A stretch of 64,000 nucleotides of DNA, taken from the NCBI GenBank assembly GCA_030295235.1, contig AP026140.1, positions 62,001 to 126,000 of the forward strand, written 5' to 3'. This DNA is from Fistulifera solaris. Its lineage: Eukaryota. The first letter of the stretch is position 1, and every line of letters begins with the position of its first letter. Made by a program: the position numbers and the translations under genes. Shown here piece by piece: positions 1,970-6,595 of this stretch. The notes beneath the pieces are model-generated. The model was not told where the DNA came from and did not search any database. It saw only the letters and a list, made by a program, of their open reading frames with translations.

Positions 1970-2449
1970 TTACAATCTCATTCCATCCGCCATAATAGAC
2001 GTCATATATTTAAAAACACGAGTCCAGTTTTCAGCATCTTCCGTTGTGAAGTCAGCTCCCATAATTGTTTCGACTGCGTAAATAGTAGCTCGACCCATCG
2101 AGGAAAGATCTTCCGGCTTGGCGCCGTAGGAAATGTGTCGCTGACCAAGATCCTTGAGAAAGTCCTCCAAGGAATCCAAATTCGGCCCAAGAAACTGAAC
2201 GACACAGTCCACCATATCCACAATCACAGGCGCATGAGTCTTGAATGATAAGTGTTCCTTGATATTTTCGACGCCTTCCATATCGAAGATCGCTGCGGCG
2301 CGAGGATTCAATTGAAAGAGTCGCTCAAAGATGAGTTCGCCTAATCGATCGACGTAGTCCTTATCTTTCAGCTTCACCTGGTCCCATGTACTCGATACAT
2401 TCATGGCGATGGTGTAGTCAATGCTTTCGATACGAGTAGCCGTTGTCAT
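1970..2449 (-). CDS. Single-domain 3/3 globin (about 159 aa)
   Basis: Globin pattern: A-helix W (STWDQV), IFERLFQLNP..AIF, distal KTH, proximal LGQRH, H-helix AENW. The likely start is the ATG at 2449. Confidence 0.9.
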   Translation of the reverse strand: MTTATRIESIDYTIAMNVSSTWDQVKLKDKDYVDRLGELIFERLFQLNPRAAAIFDMEGVENIKEHLSFKTHAPVIVDMVDCVVQFLGPNLDSLEDFLKDLGQRHISYGAKPEDLSSMGRATIYAVETIMGADFTTEDAENWTRVFKYMTSIMADGMRL

Positions 2450-3532: not shown

Positions 3533-4234
3533 TTAAAGGCTAGCCACGAAAGAAAGCAGGAAGAAGCATCCTGTCGCTGCTTTCACATAGAGCCCCTTCA
3601 CACTCGAAGTAGTCGTTGTTTCTCCTTCATGGGAATGATCATCGCAAACCAGTTGACTTTCCGTCGCCGTGGCGGAATTACAGACATGCATGGTGCAAAT
3701 GGATTCCATATCATGCAAACCTTCTTCGGCAGCTGTTGTCAAGGACTCATGGGGACAGTTGTCGTGAACTGCTACGAGAGTTAGAAAGTTGGTGCCACAC
3801 GCCTCGGAAGAGCAGTCGGTCAAACACCCGGCATCCAACATGGCACTGTAGGCGGTATCACCGCTTCCGTCATCACAGACAGGAATAGGACAGTCAGGAG
3901 CTCCTTCGGTTGCGGCGCGTTGGATCTCACAGGCTACGCAAACGGTGTCAAAGTCATGGAAGCCATCCTCAATTTCGGTCGGGACTTCACCCTCTTGACA
4001 ATAGTCGTGATGCGCCTGAACGATATAGTAATTCATAGTGCAGTCCTCGGTGCTGCAATCCGTAGCACAAGAAGATGTTTGCAACGCATTGAAAGCTGTC
4101 AGCATAGCCGCCGTATCCGTACAATCAATGGCAAACCCCAAATGCTCCGCTTCACAGGCGCAACTCTCGGCCGAAAGCACCGCAGAAAACTGAGAACTCA
4201 GAAGAAGGAAGATTGAAGCAGAAATAAACATCAT
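3533..4234 (-). CDS. Secreted, probably GPI-anchored Cys/His-rich double-repeat protein (putative metal-binding)
   Basis: Signal peptide from ATG 4234. Two internal repeats C-x2-DC-x4-C...(H/V)HD-x-C...G-x-HD...C-x2/4-C, then DDHSHE, a Thr/Ser spacer and a hydrophobic C-terminal tail. Confidence 0.8.
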   Translation of the reverse strand: MMFISASIFLLLSSQFSAVLSAESCACEAEHLGFAIDCTDTAAMLTAFNALQTSSCATDCSTEDCTMNYYIVQAHHDYCQEGEVPTEIEDGFHDFDTVCVACEIQRAATEGAPDCPIPVCDDGSGDTAYSAMLDAGCLTDCSSEACGTNFLTLVAVHDNCPHESLTTAAEEGLHDMESICTMHVCNSATATESQLVCDDHSHEGETTTTSSVKGLYVKAATGCFFLLSFVASL

Positions 4235-4484
4235 GGTAGCACAGTTGAATCGTCTTGGTAAAGCGGTAAAAGGTATAAATGAGTCGAAAGATATGATCGA
4301 ATGAATAATCGATGCGAAAATTTGGCGTGCCTTCGTGCATCGTTTTGAGCCTAAACAGGCCATAATAATAGCCTGGATCCAAACTTTCGCAAGATCAAAC
4401 TTCATAGTCTAGAATGCAATGTTGCAAGTCCGCCTCTCTACGAAGTGTTTTCGATAGAGTAGGCAAGGCTATTTCGAGACTTGA

Positions 4485-4493
4485 GACACGTGT
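4485..4493. promoter_or_regulatory. ACACGTGT palindrome (CACGTGTC on the minus strand) in a bidirectional promoter
   Basis: Lies about 250 bp from both divergent ATGs (4234 and 4736). Matches the CACGTG(T/C)C-type element known from diatom low-iron promoters. Confidence 0.45.
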
Positions 4494-4735
4494 GCTGTGG
4501 CCTAAACAAAACACTCACTAAAGGCCGCTTAACTCCCTTTCACTCCAACACTTCTTTATGGTCACCGTCGTCTCCCTCGATCTTTTGAAAAAAAGCCAAA
4601 TAGCTTTACCTGAGCCACAAAAAGGTTGTAAGAGCTTCTCATTATCAGTGACTCTACCGGTTGATTGATTTTCTATCCAGTCGATTGTTTTCAAGTGCTC
4701 CCTCTCGCTCACTTTTTTTTTATAAACAACAAATT

Positions 4736-6595
4736 ATGACTAGCAGCAGCAGCATCACCACAATTTGCTTTTGTTCCTTGTGTGCTCTGGCTGTCTCGTC
4801 TACCGTACAGGAACAACTGCCAACAACGCCACTTTCCCGTAGCTTGCAAGTTAAGAGCACGTTTGTCAATTTGTATGAAACGGTCACTACCGTTGACGCC
4901 TCCGTCGACAAGGACATTCGCGCCATTTTCTCAAAAACCAACTTGGGAACACAGGAGGCATTTGAAGAAGCCCGAACTCTGTATTCACAAGGAGCTTATG
5001 CTGGATCGTATGCGACGCTGCAGATTGACGCTTCCAGTTTGACAAAGGATCTAGTTGCTGGGACTGCAATCCAAGGAGTCTCGAGCAATCGTCCCAATCA
5101 GCCTGCGATGGGGTATGTCAAGGAAACTGCTCCAGCTGGGAGTACATCCATAACAGTACGGTACACGACGGATTGTTACGTCGGTGGACTCGGTACACCC
5201 ATCGTCGATCATTGTAAGCATACTATTGCAACATGCTTTTTGCTCGTGTGTGGATCCACCTGCCTCACGAAACACTGTTTCTCCTTTCGTTGCTATGAAT
5301 CAGGTCTCAAAGAATCGACTGGCGATCAAACATTTCAAATGGGCGAAAATGGTCAAGAACTAGCATACACGTACAGTCCGTTACAAGATACAAAAAATGC
5401 TTTGACCTTAGAGCTCCTGGGCCAAGGCAATTCATCGTCGCCCACCTACTCTGCGTTCTTTGATTACAGCGGGGCGTATGACTATGCCAACCAAGTTATG
5501 ATGGCGGCATTTCAAGGTTCCACAACAACGTTTCCGAATCAGCACACGAACATGGACTTTTCGAAGTTGGACCACGAAGGTCGAGCCGGTGAGTAATTTA
5601 TGTCCGACTTTTAGTTGCCGATCCTCAAGCTCACACGCTTTGTCGTCAATTGTAAATTCACAGCTGCCATTCGCTGGGGAATGGTTGGTATGAATATACA
5701 TTCGCATGTGCTGGAGAAATTACATCAAGCCACGGCGTCTTGCAAAGAGAACGAAAATGCCATTCATTACTGGGACGAGGCAGTCGGCTTCTATACGGGT
5801 TCCATTACCGATTTTCCTGGCGAAGAAGGATACCTTCTCTTTACTGTTGCTGAAATGGAATGCTCTTATTTTGGGACATGCAGTGAAGGCAGTATGGCTC
5901 GTGTGAATGAAGCAATCTTTGTGGCATTTCTCGAAGGCAAAGATATGTTGCAGAAGAAGCAATGTAACGAAGTCATCGAAGTTTCCCGGCAAATCAAATC
6001 GATGATGATGATTCCTCTCGTTCAACGCATCCTTCGTCATGCGTATGAACTGGATCTGCAAGAAAATCAACAAGCCAAAACTCAAGGTGACGCCGCTGCC
6101 TTCATGGCATCTTTGGCACCACATCTGTACAGCTGTCAACGATCGTCAGCACACATGTTGTGGAATGATCTCGCGCCGGGAAACGCCACAAAAGCAAGTT
6201 TCGAAGTTCTCAAATTCACTTTGGAGCGCACGTACGACTGTTTGGGTATCTCTTGTGAGGATGTTGGCGGTTTGTTGCACATTGATCCGACTGGCAGTGG
6301 ACTTTTGTACAATAAAGGCGCCGAGCCCTGTAATTACGTTCCGCCGGCAGCTGAATCACTGAATAAGACGGCAAGTACTACCCGTGCAGAAGAGAATGGT
6401 GATGACAGGAATCAAACCGCATCGACGATCGTCTTTGTGGCGCTAGGATTTTTAGTTGCTGCAATTCTCGCTGCGTTGGTTCGATATCGCTCGAAAAAGC
6501 CGACGAAAGTGTTGGCAATGGAACAAACAGCCGATGTGGCATCAAATGATAAGGAAGATGCGACCGTGGCGGTCGAAGTTGGAGAAATAGCTTGA
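4736..6595 (+). CDS. ISIP2a/phytotransferrin/FEA1-family low-iron-inducible surface protein, divergent paralog
   Basis: Signal peptide and family motifs A..LY.QG, WDEAVGFYTGS, C..FGTC, IPLVQ.ILR.AY and Y.CLGISCEDVGGL, with a C-terminal TM helix. Introns 5214-5303 and 5589-5663 restore one reading frame. Confidence 0.85.

Follow-up and report, generated by a model that had tools for sequence, protein, structure and literature searches.

A Cys/His-rich double-repeat protein encoded head-to-head with a phytotransferrin-like gene in diatoms is a candidate surface metal binder

Iron supply restricts the growth of diatoms over large ocean areas. In fungi, the CFEM proteins (Rbt5/Pga7/Csa2) are small, helical, disulfide-stapled and often repeated relays for iron sources that are held by a glycosylphosphatidylinositol (GPI) anchor and bind haem through Asp, and in LIV-1-type ZIP transporters such as ZIP4 a helix-rich, disulfide-bonded, His-rich ectodomain takes part in metal uptake. 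The diatom phytotransferrin ISIP2A is defined by the Pfam family PF07692 in the cited section of PMC7966952, and partners of the phytotransferrin pathway are described as still being sought in the cited section of PMC7972479. Here, a 64,000-nucleotide stretch of Fistulifera solaris (assembly GCA_030295235.1, contig AP026140.1, positions 62,001 to 126,000 of the forward strand; the window) was found to carry a gene for a Cys/His-rich protein, P0001, that stands head-to-head with a gene for a phytotransferrin-like receptor, an arrangement that recurs in related metagenome loci. We tentatively propose that P0001 is a metal binder tethered to the cell surface by a lipid, and that it works with the phytotransferrin-like receptor as a candidate component of iron uptake, a reading that we consider plausible, if not quite probable.

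The gene lies on the minus strand, where an open reading frame (ORF) at 3536-4234 with its stop codon at 3533-3535 gives a product of 233 amino acids. The following features were assigned to it.

3533..4234, minus strand: complete intron-less coding sequence of the Cys/His protein P0001 (233 codons plus stop), from translation, homologues and gap-free contig cover.
4169..4234, minus strand: signal-peptide-like N-terminus, residues 1-22, MMFISASIFLLLSSQFSAVLSA, by inspection and from the same start in the relatives of alignment A1.
3938..4099, minus strand: repeat 1, residues 46-99, with Q73-x-H75-H76-D77-x-C79 and E89-D90-x-x-H93-D94, from the repeat alignment, AlphaFold2 helices 41-53/63-78/86-95 and conservation.
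3695..3856, minus strand: repeat 2, residues 127-180, with H157-D158-x-C160 and E170-x-x-x-H174-D175, from the repeat alignment, AlphaFold2 helices 124-134/144-159/167-177 and conservation.
3623..3643, minus strand: residues 198-204, DDHSHEG, a short form of a His/Asp-rich linker, from the sequence and its relatives.
3536..3622, minus strand: residues 205-233, a Thr/Ser-rich spacer and hydrophobic end (GCFFLLSFVASL) without a cytosolic tail, resembling a GPI-attachment signal, from the sequence, its relatives and low model confidence.

Read in order, the product comprises a hydrophobic N-terminus ending LSA/ES, as expected of a signal peptide on inspection, two Cys-rich stretches with two His-Asp pairs each, a DDHSHE patch, the Thr/Ser-rich spacer and the hydrophobic end. 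The gene is judged to be genuine because it has numerous relatives: a word-index search returned 68 homologues, and a phmmer search of 1.84 billion representatives matched 330 clusters at E <= 1e-3, with 220 at <= 1e-10 and 50 at <= 1e-30. The best word-index match was a hypothetical protein of F. solaris itself with 86% identity; we take this species to be allodiploid, in which case P0001 would presumably be the second subgenome copy of that protein.

The first-pass annotation, made from the letters alone, had described a secreted, very acidic protein with two Cys-rich repeats and had given a motif string for each, and both strings read identically in the translation (repeat 1, CATDCSTEDC..QAHHDYC..DGFHDF..CVAC; repeat 2, CLTDCSSEAC..AVHDNC..EGLHDM..CTMHVC). 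The overall description was borne out as well. The mature part (residues 23-233) has an isoelectric point (pI) of 4.05, with 36 Asp and Glu residues against 3 Lys and Arg, 10 His and 19 Cys. Residues 46-99 and 127-180 aligned without gaps over 54 residues at a BLOSUM62 score of 129, compared with 34.4 +/- 6.4 for shuffled sequences (n=2000; z 14.7), none of which scored as high. In an AlphaFold2 model built from 46 aligned sequences the protein is all-alpha, with a mean predicted local distance difference test score (pLDDT) of 80.6 and 129 residues at 90 or above; helices were placed at residues 25-31, 41-53, 63-78 and 86-95, and then at 124-134, 144-159 and 167-177, and the last 29 residues were disordered (pLDDT < 50).

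Conservation was assessed by aligning a domain profile to 157 near-full-length copies among the 211 proteins of the family. The 18 Cys of the domain are kept at 81-100%, and the His/Asp positions are its best-conserved residues other than Cys. In repeat 1, H75 is conserved at 97%, H76 at 99%, D77 at 100%, H93 at 98%, Q73 at 88%, E89 at 81% and D94 at 65%; in repeat 2, the values are 94% for H157, 96% for D158, 95% for H174, 92% for E170, 89% for E177 and 74% for D175. Loss of the His-Asp pairs in relatives, which had been named in the first pass as a result that would speak against metal binding, was therefore not observed; the pairs are kept family-wide (94-100% at H75/H76/D77, H93, H157/D158 and H174), far beyond chance given that conservation. 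C60 and C99 are lost jointly in 18 copies, out of 20 losses of C60 and 23 of C99 in total, and this correlated loss supports a disulfide that would run between the beginning of helix B and the end of helix C. Of the disulfide-stapled scaffold claimed earlier, the Cys framework is kept at the levels given above, and as regards the bonds themselves it is the single pair C60-C99 that the correlated loss backs. On these sequence patterns, a role of the conserved His and carboxylate residues as metal ligands is plausible.

A GPI signal consists of small residues, a short spacer and 10-20 hydrophobic residues at the very end of the protein, without a cytosolic tail. The terminal residues of P0001 (...TTTTSSVKGLYVKAATGCFFLLSFVASL) show this layout of small residues, spacer, hydrophobic end and missing tail. 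A strict test was applied to the 161 relatives that are informative at the C-terminus, with a Kyte-Doolittle hydropathy of at least 1.3 over the last 15 residues and no charge in the last 12. It was passed by 97 of them, in which small residues precede the hydrophobic end and 33 of which also have a linker with at least three His, and by a further 10 after an extra domain, so that the GPI-like tail noted in the first pass proves to be a trait of about two thirds of the informative family. In many relatives the His/Asp-rich linker is far longer than in P0001, as in (HD)n or HDHDHD. Other relatives have a transmembrane (TM) helix with a short tail in place of the GPI-like end, several of these tails ending E-[IVL]-[AS]. 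In four of the 141 representatives (P0079, P0080, P0086 and P0143), a Hedgehog-type Hint module (PF01079; E 4.5e-16 to 1.1e-24) follows the Cys/His domain and is preceded by a CF[SA]G-type sequence; no such module was found in P0001 by the Pfam scan, and no Pfam domain besides Hint was found in the 141 representatives at E <= 1e-5. In Hedgehog proteins the Hint module excises itself, and the N-terminal domain is left with a lipid attached. By analogy, the four relatives would be autoprocessed and lipidated in place of using a GPI-like tail. Membrane tethering is therefore predicted to be constant across the family while the anchor type varies, and since three different devices lead to the same outcome, the domain would act at a membrane, on its outer or luminal side.

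The second line of evidence is the position of the gene. Two further features were defined on its upstream side.

4235..4735, no strand: intergenic region of 501 bp between the divergent start codons, a putative bidirectional promoter, from the sequence.
4736..6595, plus strand: Fea1/ISIP2a-like (phytotransferrin-like) type I membrane protein, from ORFs, an intron, Atlas clusters, sub-threshold Fea1 matches and synteny.

A set of 39 metagenome loci was retrieved with the family alignment, and the neighbours in the window were then placed on these loci by tblastn. In 13 loci a phytotransferrin-like gene lies 515-1056 bp upstream of the first Cys/His gene, in every case on the opposite strand, and the pairing was present in 11 of the 15 loci that have at least 2 kb of upstream sequence. 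The ten loci that include the full C-terminal half of the phytotransferrin-like protein fell into at least six groups, 31-62% identical to one another, and the pair in the window is an additional case whose phytotransferrin-like protein is 33-43% identical to those of the loci. As an internal control, the globin gene of the window and two upstream ORFs were matched in none of the 39 loci, which indicates that the general gene order is lost at this distance and the pair is kept. The diatom iron genes FBP1 and FRE2, described as a divergent pair with correlated iron-sensitive expression in the cited section of PMC6876252, were counted as a precedent for such an arrangement.

The divergent neighbour, whose gene contains at least one GT..AG intron near 5589-5661, opens with a signal-peptide-like segment, carries a conserved WDxAVxxYTGS block and closes with a single TM helix and a short tail. 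Its nearest Atlas clusters, which are from diatoms (scores 0.96, 0.96 and 0.91), carry PF07692 Fea1 in 17%, 38% and 88% of their members, and all ten of its best family-bearing Atlas matches agree on Fea1 ("low iron-inducible periplasmic protein"). It was named Fea1/ISIP2a-like, with membership predicted, because of these clusters, the sub-threshold Fea1 matches given below and the use of PF07692 to define ISIP2A. An internal duplication is reported for ISIP2a; none was detected between the two ORF halves of the neighbour (score 33, against 33.9 in shuffles). A word-index search for longer homologues of the neighbour gave one match, and PDB searches with it gave nothing relevant. A complex predicted for the P0001 ectodomain and the C-terminal half of the neighbour scored 0.00; this value was obtained without controls and does not bear on binding either way.

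Among the phytotransferrin-like neighbours, the tails end EII, EIA or QIV. Similar C-termini (E-[IVL]-[AIS]/II) were noted in the Cys/His proteins P0087, P0096, P0111, P0117, P0122 and P0176 and in the phytotransferrin-like genes of the window (6560-6592) and of loci L018, L006 and L025. The likeness between TM-anchored Cys/His members and phytotransferrin-like proteins may reflect a shared sorting signal.

Taken together, these data are consistent with a secreted, disulfide-stapled and all-helical ectodomain of two tandem three-helix repeats, which a GPI-type lipid anchor would place at the external surface of the plasma membrane or inside the lumen of endocytic vesicles. Two helices of each repeat would present a His/carboxylate cluster (QxHHD and ExxxHD in the first, xHD and ExxxHD in the second), and these clusters, together with the acidic His/Asp linker behind the domain, would bind metal cations. 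P0001 and the Fea1/ISIP2a-like receptor would be made from the common divergent promoter region and act together, with P0001 concentrating iron at the surface, passing it to or taking it from the receptor, or travelling with the receptor through endocytosis. Metal binding, iron as the metal and the partnership with the receptor are all inferred here. The conserved pairing with a phytotransferrin-like gene is what shifts the favoured metal to iron rather than zinc, and this preference is drawn from genomic context. A bolder form of the proposal, which we regard as somewhat unlikely, is that the two genes make up an ancient iron-capture module whose head-to-head order predates the split of the main diatom lineages, and in which P0001 is a lipid-anchored partner, akin to a metallochaperone or ferroxidase, that is required for loading or unloading the receptor. 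If true, such a two-gene module would supply a component that current models of iron uptake in diatoms lack.

Several observations weigh against the assignment to iron uptake. His-Asp repeats of the (HD)n kind are commoner in binders of Zn, Ni and Co. Nothing was found on expression under metal limitation, and no homologue from a model diatom was present among the named matches. Within a single repeat, the HHD and ExxxHD clusters would lie at opposite ends of the modelled hairpin, and for that reason a metal site would require both repeats or two molecules. Four of the 15 loci with sufficient upstream sequence (L009, L010, L027 and L034) are unpaired, and L018 carries, besides its upstream phytotransferrin-like gene, a ZIP gene (Pfam Zip, E 1.8e-27; L018:12371-13630, plus strand) 1.7 kb downstream of the Cys/His gene and on the same strand. 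On the receptor side, a Pfam hmmscan of the window ORFs gave no Fea1 match for 4736-6595, and Fea1 appeared below threshold in two of seven homologues of the neighbour (E 0.1 and 0.14, at positions 139-190 and 308-343 of the 359-position model). Midway through the shared intergenic region, at 4486-4493, lies the palindrome ACACGTGT. It is similar to ACACGTGC, an iron-response motif described at about -200 in diatom genes under iron regulation (Lommer 2012; cited section of PMC3491386), and the related loci do not conserve it. ACACGTG shows no enrichment across the window (5 observed, 8.6 expected), CACGTG is present in the intergenic regions of a single group, L002-L004, among the 13 paired loci, and no 6-8-mer is common to the intergenic regions of these loci beyond what shuffles give.

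Among the alternatives, the one that survives best is that P0001 is a surface scavenger or buffer for Zn, Co, Ni or Cu, acting alone or with ZIP-type transporters, and that it stands beside the phytotransferrin-like gene through common regulation or retention by chance and not for iron handling. We consider this unlikely, though it is in keeping with the HDHDHD-type linkers of many relatives and with conserved ligands that consist of His and carboxylates without a free-Cys motif, and the ZIP gene at L018 fits it. Diatoms also use a membrane-tethered putative Zn/Co ligand, ZCRP-B, according to the cited section of PMC9010474. The first pass had mentioned similar ectodomains fused to ZIP transporters in algae and had suggested a search of domain architectures, and the fusion found no support: Pfam Zip (PF02535) was present in none of the 141 representatives at E <= 1e-5 and in none of three longer homologues, the latter from a word search that counts as weak evidence. 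No ZIP or other metal-transport gene was seen among the 39 other large window ORFs scanned, and a ZIP gene is adjacent in one of seven long loci scanned, as against the 11 of 15 with an adjacent phytotransferrin-like gene. Were the metal nevertheless zinc or copper, the family would still represent a novel type of metal ligand at the surface of a key group of phytoplankton.

It is improbable that P0001 is instead a structural or adhesive, calcium-binding protein of the wall or surface, comparable to the frustulins, with its His and Asp residues serving folding, pH sensing or protein contacts. The low pI and the 18 conserved Cys would suit such a protein, as would the tandem copies and multi-domain arrays of relatives and the missing enzyme or transporter signature, and P0001 may resemble the frustulins, which are acidic, Cys-rich wall proteins. 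Near-invariant His at five positions would, however, be unusual in a purely structural calcium binder, and the pairing is conserved with a receptor gene of the iron-uptake type, while the domain to which many relatives are fused has an invariant His/Glu motif of its own. Most doubtful of all is a role as a small metallo-enzyme or redox partner outside the cell, for instance a di-metal His/carboxylate helper of the ferroxidase or reductase type that would make iron ready for the receptor or free it from there, which the paired ExxxH and HD motifs on four modelled helices, reminiscent of di-iron carboxylate bundles, and the pairing with a Fea1-like gene (green-algal Fea1 is reportedly co-expressed with a ferroxidase and a reductase, going by the title of a 2007 paper by Allen) could suggest, but which is opposed by the small, heavily disulfide-bonded domain and by the failure to match a ferritin-like or other enzyme fold (best VIA Z 4.9, best Foldseek E 1.9).

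The P0001 family spans radial and polar centric as well as araphid and raphid diatoms, with named members in Proboscia, Corethron, Odontella, Thalassiosira, Cyclotella, Cyclostephanos, Thalassiothrix and Fistulifera. One family match is filed under an amoeba transcriptome, and in one Atlas cluster green algae are the commonest known phylum, the phylum being known for 7 of 177 members; these entries hint at either a wider range or contamination. Pfam gave no family for P0001 at E up to 10 and hence no enzyme or transporter signature, a search of PDB sequences with the A1 family profile gave no match, the best Foldseek match of the model in the PDB had E 1.9, and a wide VIA-align search of 48,161 chains reached a best Z of 4.9 with generic three-helix units only. 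An Atlas row offering "Elicitin" for P0001 was rejected at a score of 0.78, below the level counted as a lead. No description of the Cys/His family was found in the literature by topic or motif, to which bioRxiv supplements could still add. We accordingly class it as a novel fold or family that belongs to an established type of system.

In 40 of the 211 family proteins the Cys/His domain is joined, in either order and sometimes in arrays, to an undescribed second domain of some 145 residues. In an alignment of 21 such proteins, the residues H, P, E, F, E and H of an HxPxEFExxxH motif are invariant, and His-rich linkers come after it. Examples are as follows.

P0038, residues 23-170: second domain; also in P0040, P0009, P0187 and P0085.
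L001:5563-5967 and L009:10517-10915: second domain in metagenome loci.

The domain was modelled as a beta-sandwich, with a pLDDT of 82.1 for the whole fused protein, and gave no Pfam or specific fold match (best Foldseek E 0.13 and best VIA Z 5.7, both to generic jelly-rolls). Its motif fits a metal-handling module. Many loci contain a second, tandem Cys/His gene that is fused to this domain, and tandem Cys/His duplicates, or a domain doubled within one ORF, were observed at L001, L002-L004, L006, L009, L014, L015 and L019.

Regarding the limits of the P0001 gene, a longer ORF could start at an upstream ATG at 4405. The start at 4234 is better supported, because the relatives in alignment A1 open with Met and a signal peptide at this point, and the absence of CAT, the minus-strand ATG, from 4235-4305 also counts towards it. 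Contigs of runs X2-X4 span the coding sequence without gaps. Contigs from three small runs of one study extend from 3300 to about 4300 and end at 4296/4305 with untemplated A-runs, their strand and RNA nature not being readable from the contigs; the neighbour at 4736-6595 is uncovered in the same three runs, which carries no evidential weight. In two of the small runs, 21-22 untemplated A terminate contigs at 4296-4305 and 4274-4279, and a TATAAA lies about 20 nt ahead of these ends on the plus strand. The ends could represent the 5' end of a sense mRNA in a tailed cDNA library or a poly(A) site of an antisense RNA that covers the gene. At 4713, the contig of a DNA-like run is one base short in a T-run just upstream of the phytotransferrin-like start, a homopolymer length difference.

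Two other genes lie near the pair in the window. A globin-domain gene (Pfam Globin, E 3e-11; 1973-2449, minus strand) is located directly downstream of the P0001 gene, an adjacency that is not kept in the related loci. At 413-1788 on the plus strand, two overlapping long ORFs encode a protein that contains Cys and has a TM helix and an acidic tail at its C-terminus, for which no Pfam or PDB sequence match was obtained; this gene probably starts before or near the start of the window.

As an uncharacterised, diatom-wide family, the P0001 group provides a testable candidate for a phytotransferrin partner, and it may also offer a new metal-binding fold and a marker for metatranscriptomes. Compared with known systems, P0001 would share with ISIP2a/Fea1 (PF07692) the character of an acidic, membrane-anchored algal surface protein and a link to uptake under low metal, and its gene adjoins that of a member-like protein. 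However, P0001 is not a homologue of ISIP2a/Fea1 (no Pfam match at E up to 10) and has a different, much smaller helical fold, and it ends in a hydrophobic segment whereas the ISIP2a/Fea1-like neighbour has a TM helix and a cytosolic tail. With pTF.CatCh1/ISIP2b of Phaeodactylum it has in common that both are Cys-rich, secreted, C-terminally anchored, largely restricted to diatoms and linked to phytotransferrin. In pTF.CatCh1/ISIP2b, one CXC and one CXXC are conserved and, in the cited section, the authors find no conserved His, Asp or Glu (Turnsek et al. 2021, PMC7972479), whereas these residues are near-invariant in the P0001 family. An identification of P0001 as pTF.CatCh1/ISIP2b was rejected, since the published alignment, compared by eye in the part cited, shows another Cys pattern (three CXC, and DCXXC near the end) without any motif of the P0001 family, and its Fistulifera member is a different protein. 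Likewise, P0001 is not pTF.ap1, which in the cited part of the published alignment is, by eye, a longer and unrelated protein (for example the ...TLFLRWTGGDTVGGGDS... block). The strings HHDYC, HHDFC, FHDYD and FHDFD were absent from supplement files 1-13 of PMC7972479 in a motif search.

ZCRP-B is likewise proposed, in the cited section, to be a membrane-tethered extracellular ligand that feeds metal to nearby transporters (Kellogg et al. 2022, PMC9010474). P0001 was rejected as a relative of it, since ZCRP-B is described there as NikA-like, with a solute-binding-protein fold and an N-terminal TM helix, and no such similarity was seen in P0001. With Hedgehog/Hog proteins, 4 of 141 Cys/His relatives share the Hint layout, whereas P0001 has a GPI-signal-like end instead. 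The ectodomain of ZIP4 is helix-rich, disulfide-bonded and His-rich like P0001 and is possibly what the first-pass annotation referred to; in contrast to ZIP4, no fusion to a ZIP core occurs in the P0001 family, and no ZIP4 ectodomain chain is among the fold matches listed. The fungal CFEM proteins (PF05730), which have an eight-Cys pattern, differ from P0001 in the number and spacing of their Cys, with no Pfam match for P0001 at E up to 10 and no CFEM chain among the Foldseek and VIA matches listed. In working principle, nevertheless, it is to such small GPI-anchored relay proteins, alongside the membrane-tethered diatom ligands ISIP2a and ZCRP-B, that P0001 would come closest.

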